Positions 20,539 to 53,661 of a stretch of DNA of 64,000 nt are shown here, piece after piece. Source of the DNA: an uncultured Candidatus Saccharibacteria bacterium (GTDB lineage Bacteria; Patescibacteriota; Doudnabacteria; UBA920); assembly GCA_964436545.1 (NCBI GenBank), contig CAYTCJ010000004.1, positions 59,368-123,367 on the forward strand, read 5' to 3'. Under the pieces are notes generated by a model that was given only the letters and a program-made list of their open reading frames with translations, searched no databases and was not told where the DNA came from. A program made the position numbers and the translations under genes. Every line of letters starts with the position of its first letter. The stretch's first letter is position 1.

Positions 20539-20562
20539 TAATTCAACTTCATACCTCTATTC

Positions 20563-31117: not shown

Positions 31118-31199
31118 TACGGATTCTACAGATATCTACAGATGAAGACAAAAGACACAAATATTGGTCCACAGATCACACGGATACACAGATATTAGT

Positions 31200-31238
31200 G
31201 CGATGCGAATATACGAATGCACGCGAATGATGCGAATG
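31200..31238. repeat. 39-bp direct repeat copy 3
   Basis: GCGATGCGAATATACGAATGCACGCGAATGATGCGAATG. Confidence 0.7.
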
Positions 31239-31353
31239 TATATAAATAGTTAATAATAGTTGTAAGTTGTAAGTTGGTAAGTAAAACAGAAATCAGCAAA
31301 GCAGTAAGCACATTAAAAAATCCCGCCAGTAGGGCGGGTGAGAATAAGAAAAA

Positions 31354-31611
31354 TTAAAAAGGAATAGGTATACCGGTTTTAGCTGATACTTGTTTTGCCC
31401 AATCTTCTAGTCTTTCTATTCGGTGGCGATTGACTATCATTTCCTGTTCAAAGCCTTTTACGGTTTTACAAAGATAATCCAGAGTGGAGGTTATGGAGTC
31501 AACTTTTTGTTCTAATTTGTTAAAGCGAGTGTCAATATCCGCCTTCATTTCATCTAAATATTCAAATAAGGGCTGAAAGTTTGTGGTTGTCGTGGGAGTT
31601 TTTTTAGGCAT
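31354..31611 (-). CDS. Small hypothetical coiled-coil protein (85 aa)
   Basis: AT-rich ORF inside the island. No motif. Confidence 0.35.
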   Translation of the reverse strand: MPKKTPTTTTNFQPLFEYLDEMKADIDTRFNKLEQKVDSITSTLDYLCKTVKGFEQEMIVNRHRIERLEDWAKQVSAKTGIPIPF

Positions 31612-31864: not shown

Positions 31865-31913
31865 TTTACGGATGTTACAGATACCTACAGATGGGGACAA
31901 AAAGGCACGGATG
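31865..31913. repeat. 45-49-bp ACRGAT-phased repeat unit (copy U1)
   Basis: TTTACGGATGTTACAGATACCTACAGATGGGGACAAAAAGGCACGGATGG. Related units at 33048-33096, 34303-34351 and 34361-34407. Confidence 0.65.
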
Positions 31914-32233: not shown

Positions 32234-32968
32234 ATGAGTTTACTCATTGTGATTGGTCTCCTGATTTTCGCCCCATGGTGCGCCCAGGGGCAAACTCGGC
32301 TGCTGGTCCCGCGGGCGGACTCGGCTACCGCCATGGTGCGGTGCGGGGCCAATCTGGAAAGCGTAAAGGCGGAGAATCAATTGACCCGTCAGTACGTTTT
32401 TACAGGGGAGGAGACTCTGACGGGGATGCAATACTGTGTTGAGAGTCGCCACGCTCTCGTGGATGACCGCAACCGGTACCGTGTTCCGGCAGGGACCATT
32501 GGCTGGTTGTCTTCGGACGGCCAGTCGGTGGTTCTGGAGCAGTGCGTCAATATGGCGCACTGCGAGGGTTGTCCTCCCGCCCCACCTCCTCCGCCCCCGC
32601 CCCCGCCGGCGCCGAAGCCGGAACCCAAGCCGGAACCGCCCCCACCGGCACCCGAGCCCCCGGCGCCAAAGCCGGAACCCACCCCCGAGCCGGTGGTTGT
32701 CCGGCCCGAGCCACCCCCGCGGGTGGTTTTGCCCAAGCCCGAGCCACTGGCGCCGGCGCCGAGGCCCGCTCCCGTGGTCAAGAGGGGCGGGCACGGGAAG
32801 CTTATCGGGGGGTTGGTTGGGGCGGGGGTCGCGGGGGCAGTGGCGTATTTCGCCACTCGCGACCGCCACGACGCGTCCGCCCCGCCGGCCCCGGGCGTAA
32901 AGCCGGGGGTGCCGGTAGTTTCCCCGGCCTCACGGCCGGGGGGAGCCGGATTCGCCATCCGGTTCTGA
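32234..32968 (+). CDS. GC-rich (about 70%) secreted Pro-rich surface protein with a C-terminal TM anchor
   Basis: RBS AAAGGAGAATTCGC then ATG; signal peptide MSLLIVIGLLIFAPWCAQG; Cys-containing domain; PPAPPPPPPPPPAPKPEPKPEP linker; LIGGLVGAGVAGAVAYFA TM. Confidence 0.55.
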   Translation: MSLLIVIGLLIFAPWCAQGQTRLLVPRADSATAMVRCGANLESVKAENQLTRQYVFTGEETLTGMQYCVESRHALVDDRNRYRVPAGTIGWLSSDGQSVVLEQCVNMAHCEGCPPAPPPPPPPPPAPKPEPKPEPPPPAPEPPAPKPEPTPEPVVVRPEPPPRVVLPKPEPLAPAPRPAPVVKRGGHGKLIGGLVGAGVAGAVAYFATRDRHDASAPPAPGVKPGVPVVSPASRPGGAGFAIRF

Positions 32969-33047
32969 CATCTTGCCCCAAGCGGTAATGGGCGAATTTT
33001 ACCGCAAAGACAGGAACTTCGTGTGTCCTGTCTTTTTTCGTTTACAG

Positions 33048-33096
33048 TTTACGGATGCTACAGATAACTACAGATGGGGACAAAATATACGGATGC
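33048..33096. repeat. ACRGAT-phased repeat unit (copy U2)
   Basis: TTTACGGATGCTACAGATAACTACAGATGGGGACAAAATATACGGATGC. Confidence 0.65.
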
Positions 33097-33270
33097 AGAG
33101 TTTTATACGACGTATAGGACTCCGCCAGCTGGCGGATAAGTAGTATAAGACCTATACAAATATAGTAAGGAATTTTAACTTATTCTAAAGATTGACAAAA
33201 ATAGCAAAATGTGTTAAAATTGAATGTCCCAAAATTTTGGGGATTTTTGTGAGGTGGTATTTTTAGAACT

Positions 33271-33300
33271 GGATTCCGGCTCAAGGCCGGAATGACAAAA
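33271..33300. repeat. Family-A palindrome upstream of the protease cassette
   Basis: GGATTCCGGCTCAAGGCCGGAATGACAAAA. Confidence 0.55.
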
Positions 33301-33367
33301 ATCGGGATCACAGTCAAGGATAAGCCTTAGAAATATCACTTTCCAAAAATTCCATAGGAGGTGGGCG

Positions 33368-34144
33368 ATGGCCCAAGAAAATCCTCGTCGCTGGAGCGAC
33401 GAGGATCTGCTGCTTTTAATAGTGGCTCTCTTGTGCCTGTCAGCAGGTTTGTTGCTGATAGGAGATGAGAGTGGGGAAACGGTTCCCCACGGGCCAGTTG
33501 CCCCGCCCCAGCAACAATACCAAACCCCCCGCCCGAGGGAAGAGTATCGGGCGCCCCGCCGGTGGGAAGAACCGGCACCTCGACAGGAGGCACCTGCCCC
33601 GGCCCCTCAGCGAACCACACCCGCCCCTGGGGTGTGGGAGGACATTCGGTCGAGGAATGTCCTTGTCCGGCAAGGGGCTGGACAGGGAAGCGGGGTCCTC
33701 ATTGGCCACGGGCTGGTCCTGACGGACTTTCACGTGGTTGATGGGGGATGGGGGGCGGTGATTGACGGTCACGGGACCGCAATCGTGCAAGCTTGGGACG
33801 AGGGTAATGACCTCGCAATCCTTAAGCTTGTGGGATATGACCCCACACCCCGTCTGGACTTCGCGTTTGACCCGGACTTGCTCCGTCCGGGCACACGTCT
33901 GGTTACCGTGGGTAACCCTAGAGGGGTCACGGTGTCTCAGACTGGGTGGGTGGAAGCCGGGTCAGGTCAAGGCTTCTGGGCCAGGATGGACACCTGGTCC
34001 GGGCCCGGGGCGAGTGGGAGCTTAGTATACTCGCTGGATGGTGCCCCGGTGGGCATTGTCCAGCAGTGGGACGGAACCGGCATTCGGGTGAAGTGCCGAG
34101 ATCTCCGTCCCATTGTCCGACTCCTCAACTATATTGGGCGCTAA
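33368..34144 (+). CDS. GC-rich trypsin-like (S1 family) serine protease with N-terminal membrane anchor and Pro-rich linker
   Basis: RBS TAGGAGGTG. Catalytic triad contexts: VLTDFHVV (His), NDLAILKL (Asp) and GPGASGSLVY (Ser). Confidence 0.68.
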   Translation: MAQENPRRWSDEDLLLLIVALLCLSAGLLLIGDESGETVPHGPVAPPQQQYQTPRPREEYRAPRRWEEPAPRQEAPAPAPQRTTPAPGVWEDIRSRNVLVRQGAGQGSGVLIGHGLVLTDFHVVDGGWGAVIDGHGTAIVQAWDEGNDLAILKLVGYDPTPRLDFAFDPDLLRPGTRLVTVGNPRGVTVSQTGWVEAGSGQGFWARMDTWSGPGASGSLVYSLDGAPVGIVQQWDGTGIRVKCRDLRPIVRLLNYIGR

Positions 34145-34302
34145 TTGCGCCTACCTTTCCAGAGGCAGGGTTCAAGTCCTCTGGCGCGTGCTTAGACAAC
34201 ACGCGAAAGGTTTTTTACGAACAAGGCGGGTTAAACCGACCTTAAGTAGAAAAATCACTTAATTGTCTCCGCTCAGAGCTTTGTGCTTCTGGGCGGTTTT
34301 TT

Positions 34303-34407
34303 TGTTTACAGATGCTACGGATGTCTACAGATGGGGACAAAAAGACACGGATAAATACAGCTTACAGATGCTACGGATGTCTACAGATGGGGACAAAAGA
34401 CACGGAT
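34303..34407. repeat. Two tandem ACRGAT-phased units (U3, U4; 58-bp period)
   Basis: TTACAGATGCTACGGATGTCTACAGATGGGGACAAAA(A)GACACGGAT twice. Confidence 0.7.
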
Positions 34408-34443
34408 ATTGGTTCACAGATCATGGATTTACACAGATGTTAT

Positions 34444-34480
34444 GCGATGCGAATATACGAATGCATACGAATGATACTAA
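34444..34480. repeat. 39-bp direct repeat copy 4
   Basis: GCGATGCGAATATACGAATGCATACGAATGATACTAAT. Confidence 0.65.
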
Positions 34481-34602
34481 TAAAAACAGATTGCAGATAA
34501 TTTATATGACATATTAGACCTATAAGTCGCATTATCTTTATCATTTGACACAGAAAAAAAACAGTGTCATAGTAATTAAAAATAAGCGAATGAAATAAAA
34601 AT

Positions 34603-40685: not shown

Positions 40686-41912
40686 ATGAAATCACAAAAT
40701 CGTATGGGAGAAGTTAAACCAAAAGTTCAAAGTTTTGCCAGAATTAAAGTTTTAGGCGTGGGCGGGAGTGGCACCAGCGCTGTTAACCGTATGAGCGAAC
40801 TCGGCATTAAAGGCGTAGAATTTATTGCCATTAATACCGATGCGCAGGCTCTGCATAATAATAATGCAGATGTAAAAGTGCATATTGGGAAAAATATTAC
40901 CAAAGGTCTAGGCAGTGGCATGAATCCGGATTTAGGTCGGCAAGCGGCGGAAGAAAGCATTGAGGAGCTGGAGGAAGTGGTAGACAATGCCGATATGGTG
41001 TTTATCACTTGCGGGCTAGGGGGCGGAACCGGCACCGGAGCTTCGCCCATTGTCGCGGAGCTCGCTAAGAATAAAGGCGTCTTAACCGTTGCAGTCGTGA
41101 CCCGTCCGTTTACTTTTGAAGGCAGTAAAAGAAAAGAAGTGGCCGATGCTGGCTATGATAATTTAAAAGATAAAGTCGATGCCATTATTGCCATCCATAA
41201 CGATAGGATCCTGCAAATTATAGACAAGAAAACTTCACTCATAGATTCGTTTAAAACCGTAGACGAAGTTTTAAGGCAAGGCATTTCCGGTATTTCGGAT
41301 TTAATTACCACACATGGTTTGGTGAATGCTGACTTTGCCGACGTGCGTGCCATTATGCAAGACGCGGGCACAGCCATGATGGGGATTGGGCGAGCGAGTG
41401 GCGAGAACCGTGCGAGCGAAGCTGCGAAGCTCGCGGTAAATTCTCCGCTGTTAGATATGTCCTTAGACGGCGCAAAAGGAGTACTCTTTAATATTACCGG
41501 CGGAAAAGATTTGGGTATGTTTGAAATTGACGAAGCCGCGAAAGTGATTACCAAAAATATTGACTCCGATGCCAAAGTTAAGTTTGGCGCGGTGATAGAT
41601 GAAAACTTAACCGATGAAATTAAGATCACGGTCATTGCCACGGGCTTTGATGGCAACAATCGTTTAAGTGGTATGTCGCCCATAAGTTTTGATGAACCCA
41701 AAAAAGGTTTTTTGGGCACAGGCAATTTTAGCGCTCAACCCCAGAGCCCTCCGCAAACTGCGGTGGAATTAAGACGACCACTTTTTAACCCTAAACCAAT
41801 TGAACCTAAACAACCCCCAGTCATTCAAACTACTCAACCGACAGAAAATTTAAATGCAGATAACGAAGACGAATTGGAAATCCCGGCGTTCATTAGAAAG
41901 AAAATGAAGTGA
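40686..41912 (+). CDS. ftsZ: Cell-division GTPase FtsZ
   Basis: Tubulin signature GGGTGTG (GLGGGTGTGASPIVAE), T7 loop, and a variable C-terminal linker with conserved tail. Confidence 0.95.
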   Translation: MKSQNRMGEVKPKVQSFARIKVLGVGGSGTSAVNRMSELGIKGVEFIAINTDAQALHNNNADVKVHIGKNITKGLGSGMNPDLGRQAAEESIEELEEVVDNADMVFITCGLGGGTGTGASPIVAELAKNKGVLTVAVVTRPFTFEGSKRKEVADAGYDNLKDKVDAIIAIHNDRILQIIDKKTSLIDSFKTVDEVLRQGISGISDLITTHGLVNADFADVRAIMQDAGTAMMGIGRASGENRASEAAKLAVNSPLLDMSLDGAKGVLFNITGGKDLGMFEIDEAAKVITKNIDSDAKVKFGAVIDENLTDEIKITVIATGFDGNNRLSGMSPISFDEPKKGFLGTGNFSAQPQSPPQTAVELRRPLFNPKPIEPKQPPVIQTTQPTENLNADNEDELEIPAFIRKKMK

Positions 41913-41980
41913 GGCGGAGAAAGTTGTAAGTTGGTAAGTGAGTAAGTTGTAAGTAGTAGAGTTCTAAGTAAACAAAGAAT

Positions 41981-42337
41981 ATGATAATTAAGTCATTTAC
42001 AGAAATTATTGCTTGGCAAAAATCTCACCAATTAGTTTTAGATGTTTATATTTTAACATCAGAGTATCCAAAACACGAGATGTTTGGTTTAGTCAGTCAG
42101 AGTCGTAGGTGTGCGGTATCTATTCCTTCTAATATTGCGGAAGGTTTTAAGAGAAAATCGCTTAACGATTCATTGCATTTTTATAATATCGCGGAAGCGT
42201 CATTAGAAGAGCTAAAGTATCAACTTTTACTCGCTAAAGATTTAAAATACGTTTCAGAATTTAAATATCAAAAAGTTTTTGAACTATGTGAGGAGGTTGG
42301 AAAGTTAATTTATGGTTGGATAAAAATTCAAAAATAA
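41981..42337 (+). CDS. Four-helix-bundle protein (TIGR02436 / '23S rRNA IVS protein' family)
   Basis: IPSNIAEGFKRKS hallmark motif. The gene is bracketed by inverted GTAAGTTG-word arrays (41915-41960 and 42340-42375). Confidence 0.7.
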   Translation: MIIKSFTEIIAWQKSHQLVLDVYILTSEYPKHEMFGLVSQSRRCAVSIPSNIAEGFKRKSLNDSLHFYNIAEASLEELKYQLLLAKDLKYVSEFKYQKVFELCEEVGKLIYGWIKIQK

Positions 42338-42728
42338 CTTACAACTTATTTACTTACAACTTACTACATTACAAATCCGCTCTTGCGGATTTTTAAAATA
42401 TGTGCTATAATATATAAAAGTGATATAAAAAGGTCGAGCGTTGATTTCGCAAACATAACGAAACAGCGAATATCCTTAGGCTAAATAACCCTTTAAATAA
42501 CAATTTGTTTAAGGGGTGAAGGAAACACAAATAAAATTAAAATTTAGATTTTAACAACAAAATTTTGTTAAAATCATAGGTGAGTAAATTGGCTTTTTTG
42601 AATTCAAAAGCGAATTTTACCCCATACCCCAAAAACTTTATTTTTTTTTGGAAGTTTGGGACCTATGTCAATCAAATACTCAGCATTAAAACTTAAGAGT
42701 TTTGGTGAGTGGGTAAACTTATAAATTT

Positions 42729-43166
42729 ATGCAAGAGTTTTTAACCGAAGAAACGCCGGGCAAGGTAATGGCTTTATTAGGAGGTACATTATTTTCTCTC
42801 GCGTTGTTATTTGCTGTGAATGTAAGCGGAGCCAGTTTAGGTGGCAGTACGGAATATGCTTTGCCCGATCCGTTTGCGCCAGCTAAAGTTGTTAAGGCCA
42901 TAGATAATTTTTCCGCTTGGTATAGTAGCGGACTGGTGGCTTTTGCCGAGCCAGCCACAGAAGCAGTGAAGGCTCATACCGAAGCCATGGCTTGGGCTAT
43001 GGACGAAGCCAGTGTGCCTTTAGTGAGAGTTTTGGGTCTGGAGAGTTTGACTGAATATGAGAGTCAACCTCAAGTAGCCGGAGTTAGCACTAAAGCAAAT
43101 TTTGGTTTTTTAGGTTTTGGGAGTTTAAGTGTGGATCATTTATATAGTTTAATGTTAGGGGAGTAG
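42729..43166 (+). CDS. Hypothetical exported protein
   Basis: N-terminal hydrophobic segment. Followed by the hairpin AAACGCCC...GGGCGTTTTT at about 43258-43300. Confidence 0.45.
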   Translation: MQEFLTEETPGKVMALLGGTLFSLALLFAVNVSGASLGGSTEYALPDPFAPAKVVKAIDNFSAWYSSGLVAFAEPATEAVKAHTEAMAWAMDEASVPLVRVLGLESLTEYESQPQVAGVSTKANFGFLGFGSLSVDHLYSLMLGE

Positions 43167-43332
43167 TTATATATTCCACAGATCACTGATCCGCCAGCTG
43201 GCGGACACGGATACACAGATATTAGTGCGATGTGAATTGGTTATTAGAAAAAAATAAATAGCAATGAAAAACGCCCTTAGAGTTCTGGTTGAACCTTTGG
43301 GCGTTTTTGCTTTTGCGGGGAATGAACTCTGG

Positions 43333-44220
43333 TTAGAGTTCGCTACCCGTGATGAGGCGGTACGCCTCACGATACTTCTCGCTGGTGCGCGCGACCACGT
43401 CGTCCGGCAGCCCCGGCGCCGGCGGTTGCTTGTTCCACCGAATCTCTTCCAAATAATCGCGAACGAACTGCTTGTCGTAGGAGGGTTGTGGACCGCCTGG
43501 CCGGTACGAATCGGCGGGCCAGAAGCGCGACGAATCGGGCGTGAGCACCTCGTCGGCGAGCACGAGTTCATCGCCCACGAATCCGAACTCGAATTTGGTG
43601 TCGGCTAGCAGAATGCCGCGCGAAGCGGCGTACTCGGAGGCTTTGCCGTAGATCCGGAGCGTGAGATCCCGCAGACGGGCTGCAGTTTCGGCGCCCGTGA
43701 TCCGCTCCACCTGCTCGAAGGGAATGTTCTCGTCGTGACCGCTTTGCGCCTTGGTGGCGGGTGTGAAGAGCGGTTGCGGGAGACGGTCGCTTTCGACCAG
43801 ACCGGCGGGGAGCGGAATCCCGCAGACCGAACCTTGGGCCTTGTACTCCTTCCAGCCGGAGCCCGCCAGATTGCCGCGCGCCACGCATTCCACGTCGATC
43901 ATCTTGGCGCGGCGGACCAGCATGGAGCGGCCCTCGAGCTGATCGCGGAACGGCTGGAGTTCCACCGGATATTCATCGACGTTCGCGGTGAGGAAGTGGT
44001 TCGGGACGACGTCGCGGAGGAAGTTGAACCAGAACATCGAGATCCGCGTCAGCACGCTGCCCTTGTCCGGGATGCCGGTCGGCAGGATGTAGTCGAACGC
44101 GGAGATGCGGTCGGTCGCGACGATGAGCAGGTCTGCGCCGACGGCGTAGTTGTCGCGGACCTTACCACGCCCGATCAAATCAATTCCGGGCAGACTTGTT
44201 TCTAAAAGGACATTACTCAT
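43333..44220 (-). CDS. purC: Phosphoribosylaminoimidazole-succinocarboxamide synthase (SAICAR synthetase), GC-rich, apparently acquired
   Basis: GKVRDNY, LLIVATDRISAFD and LADTKFEFG motifs. True start is MSNVLL with RBS AAGGAGG. About 62% GC versus about 40% host. The tracked ORF's N-terminal extension into AT-rich DNA is rejected. Confidence 0.85.
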   Translation of the reverse strand: MSNVLLETSLPGIDLIGRGKVRDNYAVGADLLIVATDRISAFDYILPTGIPDKGSVLTRISMFWFNFLRDVVPNHFLTANVDEYPVELQPFRDQLEGRSMLVRRAKMIDVECVARGNLAGSGWKEYKAQGSVCGIPLPAGLVESDRLPQPLFTPATKAQSGHDENIPFEQVERITGAETAARLRDLTLRIYGKASEYAASRGILLADTKFEFGFVGDELVLADEVLTPDSSRFWPADSYRPGGPQPSYDKQFVRDYLEEIRWNKQPPAPGLPDDVVARTSEKYREAYRLITGSEL

Positions 44221-44428
44221 TTGTAATGTCCTCCTTTCTTTTTGATTTCTCCTCCGTAGGAGATGACTTAGGATAACAAAGTAAGGGGGGATTGTAAAGG
44301 CAGAAAAGTTAATAAGTTTATAAGTAGTAAGTTGTAAGTAAAAAGCAATCAGTAAATAATTCAATTTTGTTTGGGGATAAGTGGGCGGGGGTTTTTAAAA
44401 AATTTAGGTTTTCGCGGGTTTGCACGTA

Positions 44429-44446
44429 AATACTATATGTAGTATT
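44429..44446. promoter_or_regulatory. Putative NrdR box upstream of nrdR-nrdJ
   Basis: The near-palindrome AATACTATATGTAGTATT resembles the NrdR operator consensus (acaCwAtATaTwGtgt-like). Confidence 0.4.
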
Positions 44447-44569
44447 ATCATAAAGCTTAAATCTACTATAGGTTGAATTAGGAGTTATGAGTCAAGAGTT
44501 AAGAAAATACAGATTTTTGCTAAGATTTTATTCTTAATTCATAACTCATACTTCTTAACTCTATCAAAA

Positions 44570-45016
44570 ATGCGTTGTCCTAAATGCCAATTTGCAGATA
44601 CTAAAGTTTTAGACTCCCGACCAGTGGAAGAGGGCGAGGCAATTCGGCGTCGGCGGGAATGCGAAAAATGCGGATTTAGGTTTTCTACCTATGAAGAAAT
44701 AGAAATCTTAGATTTAAACATTTTAAAAAAGGACGGTCGGAAGGAATTGTTTAGTAAGGAAAAATTAGAGCGGGCCATACGGTTGCCTTTAGCTAAACGT
44801 CCGCATACTGACGAAACCTTTAGGAAATTGCTGTCATCAATTGAGATTGAAATTCAGCAAAAGGCTAATAACGGGGAAATAAAAAGTTCGGAAATTGGGG
44901 AAATTGTAATGAAGAAATTAAAAAAGGCCGATAAGGTCGCGTATGTGCGGTTTGCAGCCGTGTATAGACAATTTGAAGATGTAGAGGAGTTTAAGGAAGA
45001 ACTCAAAAAGTTGTAA
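44570..45016 (+). CDS. nrdR: Transcriptional repressor NrdR
   Basis: MRCPKCQ ... CEKCGFRF zinc ribbon plus ATP-cone. Confidence 0.93.
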   Translation: MRCPKCQFADTKVLDSRPVEEGEAIRRRRECEKCGFRFSTYEEIEILDLNILKKDGRKELFSKEKLERAIRLPLAKRPHTDETFRKLLSSIEIEIQQKANNGEIKSSEIGEIVMKKLKKADKVAYVRFAAVYRQFEDVEEFKEELKKL

Positions 45017-45292
45017 GTTGGTAAGTTGCCTGCCTGACGGCAAGGCAGGTAAGTAGTAAGTTGGTAAGTTGTAAGTCAATCAGTAGACAGCTCATCAGCA
45101 AAGAATAAAGCAAACAGCGATTAGGTATTAGTTGTAGAAACCGGTCGGGTGTTAAGTAAGTGGTGGTAAGTCATTTAAAATCAATAAACTTATGACTATT
45201 TTCTATACCGGATTCTATAATTTTAAACTTATAACAAAACTGAATTTAAATTTATTTAAAAATTAAAAATTTGTAATTAAAAATTTTATTCT

Positions 45293-47968
45293 ATGCAAAT
45301 TAAAGAAAATCTTCAAACTAGAACTCAGAACGCACTTTCCGAATTAGGCGAAAAAATATTTTTAGATCGCTATGCGGTGAAAGATGTAAAAAGGGAAAGT
45401 TTAGCCGTGGGGGACACTGTGGTGGTATTGGTAAATCCCAAAACCGGCCAGAGAGAAATTGGGATTGTGCAAAGTTTAAATTTGGCAGAAAAGTCCGCGG
45501 AAATTATGTTGAGAAACGGGGAAGTGGAAATGCGCGCTATTGAACATTTAGACAAACCGCTGGAAACCGTGCCGGAACAAATGTTTGAACGCATTGCCAA
45601 GCATATTGCCAGTGTGGAAACTACAACCGAAAAACAAGCCGAATGGCAAACCAAGTTTCGAGAGTTAATGGATGATTGGAAATACGTGCCAGCGGGGAGA
45701 ATTTTTACCGGCGCGGGTACCGGCCAAAATTTAACTTTTTATAATTGTTATGTTATTCCGCACCCGAAAGACAGTCGGCAAGGGATTTTTGAAACTCTAT
45801 CGCAAATGGCGGAAATTATGAGCCGAGGCGGCGGAGTGGGAATTAACGTGTCTTCTTTGCGTCCGCGTTATGCTTATGTGAAAGGTGTGAACGGCCGAAG
45901 CAGTGGGGCGGTATCGTGGGCTTCTTTATATTCTTTTGTGACAGGTTTAATTGAACAAGGTGGGAGTAGGCGGGGAGCGTTGATGCTCATTTTAAATTGC
46001 TGGCATCCCGATGTGATTGATTTTATTAATGCCAAAAAAGAAGCGGGCAAAATTACCAATGCTAACATTAGCGTGGGCATAACGGATGATTTTATGGAAG
46101 CCGTGAAGCAAGATAAGCCATGGGATTTGGTGTTTCCGGATACGAATGATCCGCTATATTCCACCAAGTGGGATGGTAATTTAGCGAGATGGAAGTCGAT
46201 TGGCGGAAAAGTGGTAAAACACAAAACCGTTAGAGCTCTGGATATTTGGGATAATATTATTACTTCGGCTTGGAGTAGCGCGGAGCCGGGTATGTATTTT
46301 ATTGACCGCGCCAATTATTTTTCCAATTCTTACTATTTTGCCGATTTACCATGCACGAATCCTTGCGGGGAACAACCTTTGCCGGCTTGGGGAGTATGTA
46401 ATTTGGGGCATGTGAATTTAGCCAAACACATTAACAAAGATACGGGTGAGGTCTTGTGGGATAAATTAAAACAAACCGTGCAATATGCCGTCCGGTTTCA
46501 GGATAATGTAATAGATGCCACCCCTTACTTTTTTGAAGAAAATAAACATCAGCAATTAGGGGAGAGACGCGTGGGGATGGGCACCATTGGTTTGGCGGAA
46601 ATGTTAATTTATAAAGGTTTAAGGTATGGCAGTGCCGAGGGAGTAAAGTTTATAGATAAGCTGTATCAGTTTATTGCTTTAACCGCTTACGAAGAGAGCG
46701 TGGAGCTGGCCCGCGAAAAAGGCGCGTTTAAAAATTTTGTAGCGGAAAAATATTTGCAAAGCGGGTTTATGAAAAATATGCCCGAGTACATTCGAGATTT
46801 GGTGAAAGAGTATGGAATAAGAAATGTGACTATTTTAACCCAAGCACCCACGGGCACAGTGGGTACTATGGTGGGGACTTCCACGGGGATTGAGCCATTT
46901 TTCTCTTGGACTTATTTTCGTAAATCTCGTCTGGGCGTGCACGAAGAAAAAATTAAATTGGCGCAAGATTGGTTAGATAAGCACCCAGGACAAGAATTGC
47001 CTGAATATTTTGCTACGGCTATGGATTTAGCTCCCGAAGAACACGTCAAAGTCCAAGCAGCGGTGCAAAAGTGGACTGATTCCGCCATTAGTAAAACCGT
47101 TAACGCACCTCAAAATTACACTATTGAACAAACGAAGCAATTATACACTTTAATGTATGACTTAGGCTGTAAGGGTGGCACGATTTACCGTGATGGAAGC
47201 CGAGATGAGCAAATTTTAGCCACGGATCATAAAAAATTAGGGAAAGACGCGTCGGAACAAGTCGAGGCCAAACTGGTAGAGGCGGGCGGATCCGCTTCTG
47301 ACGTTGGGGTCGGGATTTCGCCGGTAAGACCGACTCAAGAAGTTATGTCTATTTCGGGGGATAATGTACAAATTAAAATTGCACCAAGAGAAAGACCGAA
47401 TGCCATGAATGGCGTGACGTATAAAATGAACACGGCCTATGGGAATTTATATGTTACGGTTAACGAAGACGAGCATGGTCCGTTTGAGGTTTTTGCGCAA
47501 ATGGGTAAAGCGGGTGGGTTCTTTTCCGCTCAGACCGAAGCCATTACTCGGCTCATTTCTTTATCTTTACGTTCCAATATTGCGATTGAAGAAATTATTG
47601 CTCAGCTTAAAGGTATTCGGGGACCTGACGTGTCTTTCTCCGAAGAAGGGATGGTGTTTTCTTTGCCCGATGCAGTAGCTAAAGTTTTGGAAAAACATAT
47701 TAAACGGGGAGTAAAACAGTTAGCTATGGATTTACCCCAGAAGAATGCTTTAATTGCCAAAGCTTCGGAGCCTATGCAATTAACGCAAATGGAAACTGTG
47801 GTCGAAGAAAAAATTGCGGTGAATGGCACCATGGCTTATAAAACTTCGCAAAAAATTTCCATTGCCAATTTGGGTAATGCGCCAGTGTGTCCGTCTTGCA
47901 GTAATATGATGATTTTTGCCGAAGGTTGTATGAAGTGTGAGGCTTGTGGGTATAGTAAGTGTGGCTAG
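45293..47968 (+). CDS. nrdJ: Class II (adenosylcobalamin-dependent) ribonucleotide reductase
   Basis: Active-site region PCTNPCGEQPL with the CNLG thiyl-radical loop; about 890 aa; C-terminal CxxC...CxxC redox tail. Confidence 0.88.
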   Translation: MQIKENLQTRTQNALSELGEKIFLDRYAVKDVKRESLAVGDTVVVLVNPKTGQREIGIVQSLNLAEKSAEIMLRNGEVEMRAIEHLDKPLETVPEQMFERIAKHIASVETTTEKQAEWQTKFRELMDDWKYVPAGRIFTGAGTGQNLTFYNCYVIPHPKDSRQGIFETLSQMAEIMSRGGGVGINVSSLRPRYAYVKGVNGRSSGAVSWASLYSFVTGLIEQGGSRRGALMLILNCWHPDVIDFINAKKEAGKITNANISVGITDDFMEAVKQDKPWDLVFPDTNDPLYSTKWDGNLARWKSIGGKVVKHKTVRALDIWDNIITSAWSSAEPGMYFIDRANYFSNSYYFADLPCTNPCGEQPLPAWGVCNLGHVNLAKHINKDTGEVLWDKLKQTVQYAVRFQDNVIDATPYFFEENKHQQLGERRVGMGTIGLAEMLIYKGLRYGSAEGVKFIDKLYQFIALTAYEESVELAREKGAFKNFVAEKYLQSGFMKNMPEYIRDLVKEYGIRNVTILTQAPTGTVGTMVGTSTGIEPFFSWTYFRKSRLGVHEEKIKLAQDWLDKHPGQELPEYFATAMDLAPEEHVKVQAAVQKWTDSAISKTVNAPQNYTIEQTKQLYTLMYDLGCKGGTIYRDGSRDEQILATDHKKLGKDASEQVEAKLVEAGGSASDVGVGISPVRPTQEVMSISGDNVQIKIAPRERPNAMNGVTYKMNTAYGNLYVTVNEDEHGPFEVFAQMGKAGGFFSAQTEAITRLISLSLRSNIAIEEIIAQLKGIRGPDVSFSEEGMVFSLPDAVAKVLEKHIKRGVKQLAMDLPQKNALIAKASEPMQLTQMETVVEEKIAVNGTMAYKTSQKISIANLGNAPVCPSCSNMMIFAEGCMKCEACGYSKCG

Positions 47969-48090: not shown

Positions 48091-48750
48091 ATGAGAAGAA
48101 AAAAGATAACCATACCGCAGGAGTTTAGTAGTGAACCTAGGGGTTTAGTGATTGCCTATTTAGGCGCCGGCAAAGGGAAGACCACAGCTGCTATGGGTAT
48201 GGCCATAAGAGCTTCGGGAGCTGGGATGAATGTCTATATTTTGCAGTTTGTAAAAGCCAAAGGCGCATCAGTAGATAAAATAAAAGACGGGGAATGGCCG
48301 GTAAGTAGTGAAATAGATTTTTTTAATGCAATGGGCTCATATCACCCCCCAGCCCCCTCTTACTTTAAGAGGGGGGAGGGCCAAATTGGCAAAATTGAAA
48401 ATGAACAATTGGGTTTGGGTTTTGTTGGGATTTTGGGGGATAAAAAACAAAAGGCTATTCATATTAAAGCCGCAATCGATGGTTTATCCCGCGCCAGAGA
48501 AATTATCACTTCCGGTGAATATCAAGTAATTATTTTAGATGAAATCATTTCAGCTTTGGAAAGTCAGCTAATAGAAGAGCGGGATATTATTGATTTAATT
48601 CAACTCAAGTCGCCACTTCAGCATTTAGTCTTGACTGGGCATAATAAATATCCTAAGCTGTTAAAATATTGCGATTTAGTGACGGAAATGAAAATGGTTA
48701 AGCATCCTTACTATAAGGGAATTTTGGCACAGAGGGGGATAGACTATTAA
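48091..48750 (+). CDS. Cob(I)alamin adenosyltransferase (CobO/BtuR-type)
   Basis: P-loop GAGKGKTTAA ... QFVK and C-terminal LDEI ... VLTGHN ... DLVTEM ... KHPY. Carries an in-frame family-B palindrome at 48345-48380. Confidence 0.8.
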   Translation: MRRKKITIPQEFSSEPRGLVIAYLGAGKGKTTAAMGMAIRASGAGMNVYILQFVKAKGASVDKIKDGEWPVSSEIDFFNAMGSYHPPAPSYFKRGEGQIGKIENEQLGLGFVGILGDKKQKAIHIKAAIDGLSRAREIITSGEYQVIILDEIISALESQLIEERDIIDLIQLKSPLQHLVLTGHNKYPKLLKYCDLVTEMKMVKHPYYKGILAQRGIDY

Positions 48751-49221
48751 TTGACAAAAATGACAAAATTTAAAAAATTGACAAAAATTATTTTGCCGAT
48801 TTTGATTGTAGTGTTTTTGGCTGTGGGGTGTCAGAAGACAAGCAGTCAGCAGTCAGCCAGACAGCCAATCAGCCAGACGGTGAATCAGCAAACAGCTAAT
48901 CAGATAATTAGCAATCAGCAATCAGTAAAGCAAGAAATAAAATTTACTCATTTAGTTGTTGGAGTAGATAATGAGGCAAAGGAGTTCACAACAGTAGATA
49001 AAACCACGGCTTTACAGTTTTTAAAAAGTAAGCTTAAGGTAGAGACTAAAACTTTTTCCGGCGTGGGGGAATATGTGGTAGCCATAAATGGTCTAACGGA
49101 AACCACTGGAAAAAACTTTTGGGCGTTTTATGTAAATGGCAAACAGGCGAAAGTGGGAGCAGGAGATTATGTTTTACAAGCGGGCGATAAAGTAGAGTGG
49201 AAATTGGAGGAGATTCGTTAG
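48751..49221 (+). CDS. Lipoprotein with DUF4430-like (transcobalamin-like, putative B12-binding) domain
   Basis: Lipobox LAVGC, Q-rich linker, and C-terminal GEYVVAINGL ... WAFYVNGK ... GDYVLQAGDKVEW. Confidence 0.5.
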   Translation: MTKMTKFKKLTKIILPILIVVFLAVGCQKTSSQQSARQPISQTVNQQTANQIISNQQSVKQEIKFTHLVVGVDNEAKEFTTVDKTTALQFLKSKLKVETKTFSGVGEYVVAINGLTETTGKNFWAFYVNGKQAKVGAGDYVLQAGDKVEWKLEEIR

Positions 49222-49388: not shown

Positions 49389-49991
49389 ATGATTTTATAT
49401 TTAATAATAATTACAGCAGTGGTAAGTAGGTTTGTGCCTCATCCGGTCAATTTTGCTCCCATTACAGCCATTGCCATATTTGGCGCTTATCACTTGGGCT
49501 GGAAACAAGCTGTGGGTTTAACTTTAGTTATTCGGTTAGTGAGCGACTTATTTTTAGGATTGGTCGCCTGGCCCATGATGGTGGCAATTTACGCCTCGCA
49601 TTTGGTGGGGGTGTTGTTGGGGGTCTGGATTCGAAACTCAAAGAATGTCATTCCGGAAACCCGCCTTGGCGGGGTATCCGGAATCCAGAAACAAACAATG
49701 GATCCTGGCTCACAGGCCGGGATGACACTAGGAAAATGGGTAAGAATAATTATTGCTTCTTTAGGTGCCTCTGTAATTTTCTTTTTAGTTACTAATTTTG
49801 CTTTTTTGTATTCTAATTATTCTCACAACTTATCAGGCATTATAGAAAGTTATATTAACGGACTGCCTTTTTTGCGAGGCACTCTAATGGGCGATCTGGT
49901 TTATTCCGTGGTTTTATTTGGCGGGTTGGCGTTAGTGGAAAAATATGAAATATTAAAATTTAAATCTCCAAATTTTAAACATCAAATATAA
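49389..49991 (+). CDS. Multi-pass membrane protein (possible ECF-type substrate-binding S component); contains an in-frame family-A palindromic element
   Basis: 5-6 TM helices. The element at 49646-49727 encodes the loop NVIPETRLGGVSGIQKQTMDPGSQAGM. Confidence 0.45.
   Translation: MILYLIIITAVVSRFVPHPVNFAPITAIAIFGAYHLGWKQAVGLTLVIRLVSDLFLGLVAWPMMVAIYASHLVGVLLGVWIRNSKNVIPETRLGGVSGIQKQTMDPGSQAGMTLGKWVRIIIASLGASVIFFLVTNFAFLYSNYSHNLSGIIESYINGLPFLRGTLMGDLVYSVVLFGGLALVEKYEILKFKSPNFKHQI
49646..49727. repeat. Family-A palindromic element inserted in-frame in a membrane-protein gene
   Basis: TGTCATTCCGGAAACCCGCCTTGGCGGGGTATCCGGAATCCAG ... GGATCCTGGCTCACAGGCCGGGATGACA. Confidence 0.55.
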
Positions 49992-49998
49992 AACAGGT

Positions 49999-50871
49999 AT
50001 GCAAAAAGGTGTAGATTTTACAGGAGAAAGGCCAATAGCTAGTGAGGCTTCATTGTCCGCGGAAATTATTGAACATCAAGAAATTGCCGAATTAGCAGAG
50101 CCTGTCAGTAGAATTTTAGAAGCCTTAAGATTGGAATTGGAACGCGGAACTTATTCTTTAATTATTGGCATAGATGACTCCGGTCGGATTCCGGCTTTAT
50201 TAATGGCAGAGACCATAACTCATATTTATAAAAAACGGGGAATACCTAAACCCCAAATTTTATTTTTTCCCAGTTATGGCACTTTGCCAAAGGCGGAGCA
50301 GGTAAGCATTGGGCAATTACAAGCAGAAAAATTACAACAGTTTTTAGCACGAAGAAACGTAGTTTTAACAGATAAAAAGGCACTAATAGTAGACGATGCT
50401 ATAAAGACGGGAAAAAGCATCACCCAAATTGTTTTGGAGTTAGATAAAATGGGTGTGAATATGGATATTACGGTGATAGGGTTAATTCGGCAAGAGAATC
50501 AGGTTTTAATGGACACAGTTATGGATTCAGCCTCCCAAGCTTCGGAAATAAGAGTGGTGTTTGGTCAAAGTGGTAATTCAGGATTATATAGACAAAAACA
50601 ACTTGGTGGTACTAGAAAAACTAAAGAAATTTGGTCTAGAGGGTTAGTGGCTACTTTAAAGCAAGGGGTAAAAAAATTAGAAGATGATGCACAGAGAGGT
50701 TGGAAGCATAAGAGAAGATTTAAAACCTGGCAAAGGAAGTTTGGAGATGTTAATGTGTTAGGGGAAAAATTAAATACTGAAGGTATAGGACGAGCTAGAC
50801 AAGATATAAAAATTTTAGCTGGTCGGTTAGCCGAAACTTTTGAAAATAAACATTCTTTACCAAAAAATTAA
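49999..50871 (+). CDS. Phosphoribosyltransferase-domain protein (type I PRTase fold)
   Basis: PRPP-binding motif ALIVDDAIKTGKSI. Shares a 41-bp 5' end (including the first 9 codons) with the next gene. Confidence 0.55.
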   Translation: MQKGVDFTGERPIASEASLSAEIIEHQEIAELAEPVSRILEALRLELERGTYSLIIGIDDSGRIPALLMAETITHIYKKRGIPKPQILFFPSYGTLPKAEQVSIGQLQAEKLQQFLARRNVVLTDKKALIVDDAIKTGKSITQIVLELDKMGVNMDITVIGLIRQENQVLMDTVMDSASQASEIRVVFGQSGNSGLYRQKQLGGTRKTKEIWSRGLVATLKQGVKKLEDDAQRGWKHKRRFKTWQRKFGDVNVLGEKLNTEGIGRARQDIKILAGRLAETFENKHSLPKN

Positions 50872-50891
50872 TAAGCAAATATAAAACAGGT

Positions 50892-51329
50892 ATGCAAAAA
50901 GGTGTAGATTTTACAGGGATATGTGTGGTGTTTGTGTGTCATGACGGCGCGGGTAATATTTTAATGCAAAAACGAGGAAAAAATACTCGGGATGAACAGG
51001 GAAAATGGGATGTGGGTGCGGGAGGTATGGAATTTGGCGATAGTGCAGAAGATACTTTAAAAAAAGAACTTTTAGAAGAATATTGTTGCCAAATTATTGA
51101 GCATGAATTTTTAGGTTTTCGGGAAATTCATAGAGAACATAACGGCCAAAAGACGCATTGGATAAGTTTGGATTTTAAAGTTTTGGTTGATCCTAAGCAA
51201 GTAAAAAATGGCGAACCTCATAAATTTGAAGAGATTGGTTGGTTTCGTTTGCCCGATTTTCCCAATCATGAGAAATTACATTCTCAATTACCATTTTTTT
51301 TAAAGAAATATGCCAGTAAATTAAAATAA
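50892..51329 (+). CDS. NUDIX hydrolase
   Basis: Nudix box GGMEFGDSAEDTLKKELLEE. Confidence 0.8.
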   Translation: MQKGVDFTGICVVFVCHDGAGNILMQKRGKNTRDEQGKWDVGAGGMEFGDSAEDTLKKELLEEYCCQIIEHEFLGFREIHREHNGQKTHWISLDFKVLVDPKQVKNGEPHKFEEIGWFRLPDFPNHEKLHSQLPFFLKKYASKLK

Positions 51330-52188: not shown

Positions 52189-53661
52189 ATGTCCGGTTTA
52201 GCTATTACTAAATCTCAGGTTTTTATTGGGTTTTGCATAGTTTTTGCCATGGGTATATTTTTAGCTTCCAAAGTTTCTATTTCCAATGTGTGGGTGTATA
52301 GTATGTGGTTCTGTTTAAGCTTAATTTGGTTAATTCGCTTGGTTAATCAACACCCTTACGGTATTATCAGTTTTGTGATTTTAGGTTTTTGGGTGATGAC
52401 TTTAGGCATGTGGCGTTTGAATATTGCAGACCAAGTAAATATTTTTGAACCTGTATTTAATACCTCGCAAAGTCTGGAAGGGGTTATTACGGAAGATATA
52501 GATATAAGAGAGAATAAACAATTAATTCGGTTTCAGCCTAATTACGTTCCGCAACAAATTTTAATTACCACCAATAAAACCCAAGAATTTTTTTACGGGG
52601 ATTATTTATTGGTTATGGGCCAAATTAAGTCAGCCAAAAATTTTGACGATTTTGATTATCAGGCTTATTTGGAACGGTATAATATTTATGGGGTAATGGC
52701 GTACCCAAAAATTTTAATTTTAAAAACTAATCGGGCGAGTAAAGTAAAATTTTGGTTATTAAAAATTAAACAAAGTTTTACGAATCGTTTGGGGAAATTT
52801 TTACCCGAACCGCAAAATAGTCTCGCGTTAGGTGTGTTAATTGGTGCTAAGCGGGGATTACCTTCCGGAATTTTGGAAAATTTTAATCGTTCCGGTACTT
52901 CACACATTGTGGCCGTGTCGGGTTATAATATTGCAATAATTGTAAGTGCTTTAAGTATCTTAGCTTGGGTTTTGGGCCGAAAACTTAGTTTTTGGGTTTC
53001 TTTATTGTTTATCTGTAGTTTTGTGATTATTGCCGGAGCCTCGCCGTCGGTAGTCCGAGCTGGGGTGATGGGGATGTTGTTATTGCTAGGTTTTAAAATT
53101 GGTCGGTTATATTCAGTGATCCCCGCTTTAATGTTAGCTGGTGTTTTGATGTTATGGATGAACCCAAAAATTTTACTTGCCGATATTGGCTTCCAATTAT
53201 CTTTTTGCGCTACGCTGGGTATTATTTTATTTATGCCCTTGTGGGAAGAACTGGCGAAAAATTGGCCTAAGTTGGCTGGTTTAAAAAGTATTTTTTTTGT
53301 TTCCGTTTCCGCTATTTTGGCGACTTTGCCTATTACTTTACCCACTTTTTCCCAACTGAGTTTAGTCGCGTTGCCGGCAAATTTATTGGTTTTGCCGGCT
53401 GTGCCCTTGGCTATGTTATTTGGATTTTTAACGGTTTTGCCTGTGGTGGCGCCGGGTTTTGCTTTTTTGGCCAATGGATTTTTAACTTATATTTTGTTAG
53501 TGGTGGAAAAATTAGGTCAATTACCTATGGCAGTTTTAAATTTTCAAGTTGGGAAGTCCGGACAATTTATGCTTTGGTTAGTTTTAGCTTTAATGTATTG
53601 GGGGTTAAAGTATTGGGTTTTGAAAAAAAATCAAAAGAGTGTTAAGATTAGCTGTAAGTAA
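52189..53661 (+). CDS. comEC: ComEC/Rec2-family competence membrane protein (N-terminal plus competence domains, no beta-lactamase domain)
   Basis: DUF4131-like N-terminus, then GTSHIVAVSGYNIAII competence motif, with more than 10 TM helices. Confidence 0.72.
   Translation: MSGLAITKSQVFIGFCIVFAMGIFLASKVSISNVWVYSMWFCLSLIWLIRLVNQHPYGIISFVILGFWVMTLGMWRLNIADQVNIFEPVFNTSQSLEGVITEDIDIRENKQLIRFQPNYVPQQILITTNKTQEFFYGDYLLVMGQIKSAKNFDDFDYQAYLERYNIYGVMAYPKILILKTNRASKVKFWLLKIKQSFTNRLGKFLPEPQNSLALGVLIGAKRGLPSGILENFNRSGTSHIVAVSGYNIAIIVSALSILAWVLGRKLSFWVSLLFICSFVIIAGASPSVVRAGVMGMLLLLGFKIGRLYSVIPALMLAGVLMLWMNPKILLADIGFQLSFCATLGIILFMPLWEELAKNWPKLAGLKSIFFVSVSAILATLPITLPTFSQLSLVALPANLLVLPAVPLAMLFGFLTVLPVVAPGFAFLANGFLTYILLVVEKLGQLPMAVLNFQVGKSGQFMLWLVLALMYWGLKYWVLKKNQKSVKISCK

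Follow-up and report, generated by a model that had tools for sequence, protein, structure and literature searches.

Why does a single GC-rich purine-biosynthesis gene lie, against the direction of its neighbours, among the low-GC genes of an uncultured Doudnabacteria-like CPR (Patescibacteria) bacterium, and how did it get there? We addressed this question in a 64-kb stretch of a metagenome-assembled genome (here called the window). A first-pass annotation had described a complete GC-rich SAICAR synthetase gene between two low-GC host genes, on the opposite strand and with no other purine-biosynthesis gene in 64 kb, and had proposed either salvage repurposing in a probably auxotrophic small genome or a recently captured cassette, flanked by repeats. 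The gene, its setting and its recent capture were borne out by our analysis; the repeat-flanked cassette was not.

The purC gene and its setting

The ORF at 43333–44220 (minus strand) is a full-length SAICAR synthetase gene, purC, of 62.6% GC, and its product has 295 aa. The protein scored above the cutoffs of Pfam SAICAR_synt PF01259 (E=4e-75; 252.9 bits, cutoff 20), the NCBIfam equivalog NF010568 (428.8 bits, cutoff 251) and TIGR00081 (229.3 bits, cutoff 189.9). Judged by the trusted cutoffs of these curated models, it belongs to the SAICAR synthetases (EC 6.3.2.6), which convert CAIR, aspartate and ATP to SAICAR. The best-matching solved structures were yeast Ade1 and Mycobacterium PurC (E ~1e-80). 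In full-length match and domain extent the protein resembles this long-form (yeast/Mycobacterium-type) PurC (PF01259, NF010568; PDB 1A48 and 3R9R).

We aligned the window protein with 33 homologs. The alignment of 34 sequences had 130 invariant columns, and all columns invariant in the 33 homologs were retained in the window protein, as expected of a long-form PurC. It differs from the long-form enzymes in the RGY(L/I)xGS motif, where residue 117 is Asn instead of the Tyr of 33/33 aligned homologs and of the yeast and Mycobacterium structures; this change (Y117N) could alter PurC activity. The dN/dS of purC was 0.11 (compared with L001, one of the closest matches), which mostly reflects evolution within the donor lineage. 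A relative-rate count (15 versus 13) gave no acceleration. On these grounds the enzyme looks intact.

The gene lies between hyp145 (42729–43166, plus strand), which encodes a 145-aa protein with no Pfam family and is conserved across the clade, and nrdR (44570–45016, plus strand), with a class II ribonucleotide reductase (RNR) gene after it (45293–47968). Both bordering host genes are low-GC, and nearly all other genes between 24 and 51 kb are also on the plus strand. Besides nrdR and RNR, the nucleotide-metabolism genes near purC are cobA, NDK, NUDIX and a PRT-like gene. Elsewhere the window carries housekeeping chromosomal genes (dnaK, topA, ftsA/Z, groEL) and the competence genes comEC (52189–53661) and dprA (18481–19587). 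A Pfam scan of the ~50 other ORFs in the 64-kb window detected no other purine-synthesis gene, that is, none of purE, K, B, H, D, F, L, M or N that would make up an operon or de novo pathway with purC. In this setting without the rest of the pathway, at least within 64 kb, the window gene differs from long-form purC.

Composition and homologs of purC

After horizontal gene transfer (HGT), a gene would be expected to differ from its recipient in composition, to group within a foreign clade and to be missing from the conserved syntenic site in close relatives. In composition, purC is unlike its recipient: its GC3 is 0.79, with a window mean GC of 41.5% and a host-gene GC3 of 0.24–0.46. The 200-nt GC profile rose from 0.48 to 0.62–0.66 and fell to 0.335, with steps exactly at the purC ends. 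The nearest homologs have a GC3 of 0.77, equal to that of purC, which indicates that no amelioration has taken place. We also considered the low-GC first 20 codons as an ameliorated or host-derived patch and rejected this, because the GC-rich homologs share the low-GC stretch cccggaattgatttgatcg.

In the protein search, 8000 proteins scored E≤1e-30. We examined the best 120, most of which carry no source name; they were 72–85% identical to PurC. All those with a source name among these 120 were Acidobacteriota (72–76%), labelled Solibacterales, Bryobacteraceae, Bryobacterales or Thermoanaerobaculia, and no named Patescibacteria PurC was among them. The closest matches examined (L001–L003) were 85% identical at the amino acid level and 81% at the nucleotide level, the latter within the CDS only, with a dS of ~0.9. 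Their contigs have 62–63% GC and neighbours of a free-living type (cvpA, panBC, a TPP enzyme and ompA). In a neighbour-joining tree the window PurC fell inside a clade of GC-rich non-CPR homologs; clustering with close relatives, which the annotation had named as grounds for giving up the capture, was not found. The tree thus places PurC in a foreign clade. An exact PurC look-up in the contig index gave no match. P0002, which had the second-best HMM score, was rejected as a close relative; this 418-aa call is tandemly duplicated and only 62–64% identical.

The donor was most likely an Acidobacteriota-like bacterium of ~62–63% GC, as judged from these homologs. Because the nearest homolog sampled reaches no more than 85% identity, at a dS of ~0.9, the true donor itself appears to be unsampled. 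Donor-type sequence ends within ~15 nt of each end of the purC CDS, and the flanks are low-GC. Had a random piece of donor DNA simply integrated, such abrupt ends would not be predicted; they hint that the segment was trimmed later or passed through an intermediate stage.

The purC site in relatives

At least ten contigs of relatives without purC keep the gene order ftsZ-(IVP)-hyp145-nrdR-RNR (L004/L168, L167, L169, L170, L171, L172, L175, L177, L178 and L085). In nrdR or RNR, L171, L172 and L176 shared 96–98% identity with the window. None of 160 nrdR loci of relatives had purC nearby (in the DNA around nrdR, up to 10 kb and often less). At this conserved syntenic site, purC is thus absent from close relatives. 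Its recent capture is borne out by these syntenic contigs, the unameliorated foreign codons and the GC-rich non-CPR homologs.

Homology to the relatives is strong up to 43263 and again from 44353, with weak resemblance back to ~44275. In place of the purC segment, the relatives have a spacer of ~100 nt that includes a terminator (~100–170 nt of unique sequence). Our best estimate of the segment inserted or replaced is 43264–44274 (~1.0 kb), comprising a terminator, purC and a 54-nt 5' UTR. To its left lies the native 3' spacer of hyp145 (43167–43263, plus strand), outside the insertion; to its right lies a low-GC spacer 5' of purC (44275–44352) with GTAAGT-type host words (families D2 and D16); this spacer corresponds to the ancestral one but has diverged.

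Two Logan contigs were 100% identical to the window and run from host sequence into purC: L165 (SRR11567520; 41109–43546) and L166 (SRR11567528; 42454–43542). The hyp145–purC junction is thus reproduced in two single-run assemblies, which argues against mis-assembly. Second-assembly support for the insertion covers the left (hyp145) junction only, not the stretch from the purC 5' end to nrdR.

In relatives, the hyp145–nrdR slot holds reverse transcriptase genes, type-IV-secretion-like genes or purB, and we infer that it is a tolerated insertion site. The purB gene was found in two more distant relatives (L030 and L098) and is native: its product scored 347 bits with TIGR00928, its GC3 is host-like and its homologs are of the Patescibacteria type. 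A bAvd-like gene at 41981–42337 and the reverse transcriptase genes in L008, L011 and L014 prompted us to consider a diversity-generating retroelement in the slot. This was rejected; no TR/VR pair was found in the window, and the mismatches in the 162-nt L008 repeat were not A-biased.

We conclude that purC was very probably acquired in a recent, lineage-specific HGT from a GC-rich donor. Foreign DNA may have been taken up by the competence machinery (comEC, dprA), and illegitimate recombination would then have replaced ~100 nt of the hyp145–nrdR spacer by ~1 kb made up essentially of the bare CDS, the 54-nt leader and the terminator.

Expression signals around purC

A Shine–Dalgarno site (AAAGGAGG, 44230–44237, minus strand), read directly from the sequence, lies 9 nt 5' of the purC ATG and is as strong as the first-pass annotation had stated. 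The hairpin that had been described in the 5' flank is likewise present, as a small CTCCT-CCGT-AGGAG structure in the 5' UTR (CTCCTCCGTAGGAG, 44249–44262, minus strand), but it is not island-specific: hairpins of this type also occur at 31033 and, next to an ordinary host gene, at 7865. The type is therefore not specific to the insertion or to islands. The fold of the whole purC 5' UTR was no better than that of shuffled sequence (z=−0.18). A promoter-like site, TTTACA-17-TATCCT with an extended TG (44270–44298, minus strand), is a consensus match only and straddles the inferred right insertion edge; three promoter-like sites were found in the region versus 1.5 expected.

Between the convergent hyp145 and purC genes lies a hairpin terminator (AAAAACGCCC...GGGCGTTTTT, 43267–43308), with a folding energy of −22.5 kcal/mol (z=−4.4) that none of 200 shuffles equalled. 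It has U/A runs on each side and could therefore act in both directions, and it takes the place of a different terminator in the purC-less relatives. Reading it as an attC-like (integron) site was rejected, as it lacks an R' core and no integrase accompanies it. An Rfam E-value scan of 42300–44600 detected no purine or ZTP riboswitch in the purC leader. With the promoter-like site at the junction, the strong Shine–Dalgarno site, the intact ORF and the terminator, purC appears to be an expression-ready single-gene unit, and this unit should yield a normal SAICAR synthetase.

Function of purC in the cell

As to what the gene does, we favour, at about even confidence, the view that purC was acquired not long ago and is neutral or of only marginal use. 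A tentative alternative is that purC is kept by selection as a functional patch of the pathway, with PurC and the native Patescibacteria-type PurB leading from CAIR through SAICAR to AICAR. With PurH or PurE encoded elsewhere in the genome, a late purine intermediate from the host or the environment could possibly be converted to AICAR or IMP. The two readings share the same HGT origin and differ on function only. Selection would be consistent with the intact ORF, in which all conserved columns are kept and no rate acceleration was found, with the complete set of predicted expression signals, with the nucleotide-metabolism neighbourhood and with the occurrence of the next pathway enzyme, PurB, in exactly this slot in L030 and L098. 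Against it stand the lack of a further pur gene in the 64-kb window, the Y117N change, the presence of purC in only one sampled lineage and the negative riboswitch scan. Moreover, CAIR is a phosphorylated intermediate for which no import route is known.

Three further GC-rich single-gene islands lie 10–14 kb upstream of purC, all on the plus strand. The first encodes a secreted Pro/Ala-rich protein (29636–30769; GC 0.69, GC3 0.81), the second a Pro-rich protein with a signal peptide (32234–32968; GC 0.69, GC3 0.75) and the third an orphan trypsin-like peptidase (33368–34144; GC 0.62, GC3 0.64) with only one other match, at 29% identity. The Logan contig L084 equals 32922–34335 of the window at 100% and confirms the junction of the second island with the low-GC spacer. 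Exact-protein look-ups for relatives covering these ftsA–ftsZ islands returned same-sample contigs only or nothing.

It is conceivable, though in our judgement improbable, that all four GC-rich, unameliorated inserts are whole genes scavenged by competence from a GC-rich, Acidobacteria-like host of this symbiont, and that purC, together with the native PurB, enables the cell to complete purine synthesis with late intermediates taken from the host. In that case the inserts would identify the host of this uncultured soil Doudnabacterium and show how CPR cells recover parts of lost pathways.

Alternative origins of the purC segment

Could purC instead be ancestral to the species group and have been deleted in all sampled sister lineages? 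In its favour, both flanks of purC appear host-like, and the ~100–170 nt of unique sequence at the relatives' site indicates a replacement instead of a clean insertion. However, the two purC-less spacer types (L167-like and L171-like) share a terminator and a C-rich hairpin, and more distant relatives (L085, L005–L037 and L087–L110) also lack purC. Many independent losses would be needed, and the GC3 is completely unameliorated. We consider this origin very unlikely.

Still less credit is due to an assembly or binning chimera, in which a GC-rich kilobase of an Acidobacteria-like genome was spliced into a CPR contig. The GC steps are sharp, the source is a short-read MAG, and both Logan contigs end inside purC (43542–43546), with independent reproduction confined to the left junction, all of which a splice would explain. 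However, that junction is spanned at 100% by single-run assemblies from two different runs, and syntenic host sequence extends beyond the insert in both directions. Exactly one whole gene makes up the insert, along with a low-GC leader and terminator, whereas donor-type contigs run on into cvpA without such flanks. The second and third islands show the same pattern in the independent contig L084.

The annotation had seen purC as flanked by ACAGAT words and a 14-bp palindrome. These repeats are present, at 43178–43215, but on one side of purC only, in the spacer 3' of hyp145, the upstream host gene. The palindrome CCGCCAGCTGGCGG occurs exactly twice in the window (33122 and 43191, the latter copy at 43191–43204); 0.07 occurrences are expected by chance, and none of the shuffles contained as many as two. 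Clusters of AC[AG]GAT words, including ACAGAT and ACGGAT in the hyp145 spacer, lie at 31119–31188, 31868–31907, 33051–33089, 34308–34433, 43178–43215 and 61203–61240, the last adjoining groEL. In the purC-less contigs L167 and L170, ACAGAT words and the palindrome are found at the same position, directly behind the stop codon of hyp145. L169 and L004 also have the words there but not the palindrome, whose position in L004 falls under an N-run. Relative to these contigs, the window spacer has a ~60-nt deletion between word repeats. Because the repeats occupy the same site in relatives without purC, they predate the insertion; they are native spacer and took no part in gene capture, and the apparent signal of a repeat-flanked cassette is the ordinary spacer architecture of this genome.

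That the repeats instead mark the ends of, or serve as recombination sites in, a capture system that also acted at the ftsA–ftsZ islands is highly improbable: although five of the six AC[AG]GAT clusters adjoin GC-rich genes, the palindrome lies only beside the second island and purC, and repeat units shift position between strains, the same words and palindrome stand at the site in purC-less relatives, the repeats lie on one side of purC and outside the replaced segment, the sixth cluster is beside groEL, and neither a recombinase, integrase or transposase (Pfam scan of ~50 window ORFs) nor a tRNA remnant, attC-like site or flanking direct repeat near purC was found.

Motifs resembling GGTTCAAGTCC near 28.97 and 34.17 kb were considered as tRNA-derived attachment sites and rejected, as the only tRNAs detected by ARAGORN and Rfam were tRNA-Lys (at 6.8 kb) and tRNA-Val (at 23.8 kb), with no further match at E≤1. 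A phage or plasmid origin gave only weak matches, the best phage or plasmid DNA being 66–74% identical over part of the gene, and purC did not qualify as a phage auxiliary metabolic gene or as plasmid-borne.

Comparison with known systems

The purC segment is a clean, well-bounded case in which an ultra-small CPR bacterium has gained a gene very recently. Filled and empty sites occur within one species group, the range of possible donor lineages can be reduced, and the gene encodes an isolated step of a pathway generally thought to be missing in these organisms. Such a case may be of use for calibrating HGT detection in MAGs, for testing whether CPR cells take up host DNA, with donor identity pointing to the host, and for testing whether isolated pathway genes serve the cell or are transient.

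With classical genomic islands and integron cassettes, the purC segment shares atypical composition, discrete intergenic insertion and strain-specific presence. Unlike them, it lacks a tRNA target, an attC-like site and flanking direct repeats; the ORFs scanned include neither an integrase nor a transposase, and the repeats nearby are native spacer. By these features it would be neither a mobile genomic island nor an integron cassette.

HGT into Patescibacteria is already known, nucleotide-metabolism genes included, with competence proposed as a route; groundwater Patescibacteria have acquired thyA and other nucleotide genes (PMC12455944). The cyo operon was transferred into soil Doudnabacteria and Saccharibacteria, and those Doudnabacteria lack most nucleotide synthesis (PMC8407418). 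The purC case is an ordinary transfer of this kind and reveals no new mechanism. It resembles the metabolic genes described in these studies (PMC8407418, PMC12455944) in its reduced-genome recipient, non-CPR bacterial donor, phylogenetic incongruence, patchy presence and proposed route through competence. It differs in being a lone mid-pathway gene without partners, in its fully unameliorated GC3, in a presence or absence that varies among near-identical strains, and in being one of four single-gene GC-rich inserts within 15 kb.

A foreign purC in a Doudnabacteria chromosome

The window (41.5% GC over 64 kb) carries housekeeping genes (dnaK/dnaJ, topA, der, pth, hisS, ftsA, ftsZ, nrdR, class II ribonucleotide reductase, relA/spoT and groEL) together with type-IV-pilin-like genes and the competence genes comEC and dprA. 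The relatives of its NrdR come from MAGs labelled Candidatus Doudnabacteria, Patescibacteria or, loosely, Saccharibacteria. From this gene content and these labels we conclude that the window comes from the chromosome of a CPR bacterium in the Doudnabacteria group.

The purC gene (43333-44220, minus strand) encodes a 295-aa protein with a full-length match to SAICAR synthetase models above curated cutoffs, as expected from the first-pass annotation, which had described a complete GC-rich gene with an SD site. Among solved structures, yeast Ade1 and Mycobacterium PurC match best. By every sequence test applied the protein belongs to the SAICAR synthetase family: all columns invariant across 33 aligned homologs are retained, and there is no rate acceleration. 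One notable change is Asn117, which replaces the Tyr of the RGY(L/I)xGS motif by a single-base change (TAC to AAC; codon at 43870-43872). All 33 of 33 close homologs have this Tyr, as do the yeast and Mycobacterium structures. The gene is indeed solitary, as had been proposed: a Pfam scan of the 64-kb window found no purine-biosynthesis gene among the ~50 other ORFs.

With 62.6% GC and a GC3 of 0.79, purC stands apart from the host genes of the window (GC3 0.24-0.46), and the GC steps fall at the gene ends. We searched 5.8 billion proteins for PurC homologs. Identity was 72-85% among the 120 top matches listed; those with a named source were all Acidobacteriota (Solibacterales, Bryobacteraceae, Bryobacterales, Thermoanaerobaculia), and none was a named Patescibacteria sequence. 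The closest homologs listed (85% aa identity) lie on contigs of 62-63% GC with neighbours of the free-living type (cvpA directly 3' of purC, panB/panC, a TPP enzyme, ompA and proC). At the nucleotide level, 81% similarity to these contigs is limited to the purC coding sequence and ends within ~15 nt of either side. The PurC phylogeny bears out the proposed capture, as the protein is nested within the GC-rich homolog clade of an NJ tree. Compared with the nearest homolog, dS was ~0.9 (dN/dS 0.11), so the direct donor is not among the sampled homologs. GC3 is close to that of the homologs (0.79 vs 0.77); therefore, purC has not yet drifted towards host composition. Composition and homologs together mark purC as a foreign gene.

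Assembly of the locus

Two contigs from Logan single-run assemblies match the window at 100% identity, L165 (SRR11567520) at 41109-43546 and L166 (SRR11567528) at 42454-43542. They run from ftsZ, the 23S-rRNA-IVP/bAvd-like gene and hyp145 (a hypothetical gene of 145 aa, 42729-43166, plus strand) across the spacer and enter purC in its 3' part, and this second-assembly support covers the left junction only. The contig L084 is likewise continuous over two further GC-rich genes (islands 2 and 3, below) and their low-GC spacer. The purC locus is not an assembly artefact, with a small residual doubt because its right junction is seen in one assembly only. L165 and L166 both end inside a conserved part of purC (43542-43546), within 5 nt of each other; other purC genes in the samples may have caused this shared stop through a branch in the de Bruijn graph.

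Empty sites in relatives

The gene order ftsZ-(IVP/bAvd-like)-hyp145-nrdR-RNR (nrdR, 44570-45016; RNR, class II ribonucleotide reductase) is kept across the clade. At least 10 relative contigs have this order without purC (L004, which equals L168 and GCA_964522815.1, and L167, L169, L170, L171, L172, L175, L177, L178 and L085). L171, L172 and L176 share 96-98% identity with the window in nrdR or RNR. In all purC-less contigs, homology to the window stops at 43263 and restarts at 44353, with weak resemblance back to ~44275. The relatives have ~100-170 nt here, with another terminator and a C-rich hairpin, vs 1.0-1.1 kb in the window; hence, the event exchanged ~100 nt of spacer for ~1 kb. Near nrdR, purC was found in 0 of 160 relative loci (fetched DNA of up to 10 kb, often less). 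The acquisition is recent and lineage-specific, and the earlier description as recently captured thus stands on foreign composition, the GC-rich homolog clade and purC-less syntenic relatives.

The IVP/bAvd-like gene (41981-42337), between ftsZ and hyp145, is present in only some relatives. We found neither a reverse transcriptase nor a DGR template/variable repeat pair in the window.

Flanking repeats

The first-pass annotation had linked the capture to a repeat family. The ACAGAT word clusters, the palindrome and the CTCCT...AGGAG hairpin are all where it had placed them, but the repeats occupy the same place in the purC-less L167 and L170. The palindrome CCGCCAGCTGGCGG has exactly two copies in the window (33122 and 43191; expected 0.07). 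In L167 and L170, the hyp145 stop is directly followed by CCACAGATCACAGAT-CCGCCAGCTGGCGG-ACAC...TACAGATAGCTACAGATGGGG...CCACAGATCACAGATAACACGGATACACAGATATTAGTGAGATGCGAAT, with the same words and palindrome as in the window, whose sole difference is a ~60-nt deletion between two word repeats. The replaced segment does not include the repeats, which are found on one side of purC only. A second purC-less spacer type (L171, L172, L175) has none of the words, and several relatives carry the GCGAAT/ACAGAT unit 3' of nrdR instead; the units were therefore reshuffled among strains independently of purC. The CTCCT-N-AGGAG hairpin type also occurs at 7865, next to an ordinary gene. We conclude that the repeats are native and no part of the capture machinery, a role contradicted by their presence in L167 and L170. 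In L004, the closest GTDB relative, a 99-nt N-run (2887-2985) covers the hyp145 end and the palindrome position, so L167 and L170 provide the palindrome in purC-less genomes.

The window spacers are unusually dense in strand-biased short words (ACAGAT/ACGGAT, GCGAAT, GTAAGT, ATGAAT, TGACAAAA and AACATTYT), and small GC-rich hairpins are likewise abundant. The arrays differ from spacer to spacer (e.g. 20456-20541, 31078-31257, 34300-34501, 45007-45112 and 48747-48791). ACAGAT occurs 30 times on the plus and 6 times on the minus strand. A composite unit (~80-180 nt) is repeated at 31.1, 34.3-34.5 and 43.2 kb, and its location 3' of nrdR in relatives indicates that units shift between spacers among strains. 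Elsewhere, adjacent PRT-like and NUDIX genes share a 55-nt start including the SD region (49970-50024 and 50863-50917, 91% identity); both proteins begin MQKGVDFTG.

Expression unit

On the purC strand, a promoter-like site with an extended TG (TTTACA-17-TATCCT, 44298-44270; a consensus match only) spans the inferred right edge of the insert. It is followed by a 54-nt leader containing a small hairpin and by the SD site AAAGGAGG, read from the sequence 9 nt 5' of the ATG. A hairpin terminator (43267-43308; -22.5 kcal/mol, z = -4.4) has U/A runs on both sides, and the convergent hyp145 could therefore be terminated there too. Because of these signals, the intact ORF and the conserved columns, the unit should yield SAICAR synthetase. 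An Rfam scan around the locus found no riboswitch for purC. AT-rich palindromic motifs (ACTATATGTAGT and TCTACTATAGG, 44425-44470) lie 5' of nrdR, are kept in relatives and resemble NrdR boxes; the insertion is divergent, about 150-200 nt upstream of them.

GC-rich islands and route of entry

Three islands between ftsA and ftsZ (29636-30769, 32234-32968 and 33368-34144; GC3 0.81, 0.75 and 0.64) encode two secreted Pro/Ala-rich proteins with signal peptides and one trypsin-like peptidase. All three come with an SD site and a terminator of their own in low-GC spacer. Among 5.8 billion proteins, no homolog of the peptidase exceeded 29% identity. The donor of the peptidase is thus missing from the sampled sequences, and no link to the purC donor can be drawn. 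Only 3 of 34 GC-profiled relative loci (L013, L018, L019) had any GC-rich segment, each of them small. A low-GC ORF between islands 1 and 2 (31360-31611; 83 aa, coiled-coil-like) is the only minus-strand gene besides purC in the 24-51 kb block.

No integrase or transposase was present among the window ORFs scanned with Pfam, and searches for a tRNA remnant, an attC-like site, or a phage or plasmid relative were likewise negative. Tests for integron/island mobility, phage AMG and riboswitch control were all negative for purC. Horizontal transfer is well supported as the outcome; the gene would have entered by DNA uptake, with comEC and dprA in the window, followed by illegitimate recombination. 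The foreign composition of all four inserts stops almost exactly at the gene ends, which random integration of donor fragments does not predict.

The variable slot and the role of purC

In the hyp145-nrdR slot there is a reverse-transcriptase gene (RVT_1) in L008 (1738-2496), L011 (1175-2137) and L014 (7784-8611), and a 7-kb block with type-IV-secretion/ClpB-like and TraG/TrwB-like genes in L026 (3654-9736). Two more distant relatives carry plus-strand purB there (L030, 8458-9774; L098, 610-1896), with host-like GC3 and Patescibacteria-type homologs. These varied contents show that the slot is variable and insertion-tolerant. In L008, a 162-nt repeat (106-267 and 1098-1259, 87% identical) flanks the hyp145 homolog; its inverted termini (GGTTCTATTGGCAAAT...ATTTGCCAATAGAACC) give it a MITE-like look. 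We rejected it as a DGR TR/VR pair, since the mismatches are not adenine-biased.

Most nucleotide biosynthesis is generally missing from CPR bacteria, soil Doudnabacteria among them (PMC8407418, PMC12455944). PurB (adenylosuccinate lyase), which acts in the step after PurC, is native to Patescibacteria, and the slot adjoins a nucleotide-metabolism cluster. A functioning late-purine patch seems to us slightly less likely than a passenger that is neutral or young.

Horizontal gene acquisition by Patescibacteria has already been documented (PMC8407418, PMC12455944), and the purC case is the same phenomenon. What distinguishes it is the strain-level presence/absence polymorphism of a lone mid-pathway gene.
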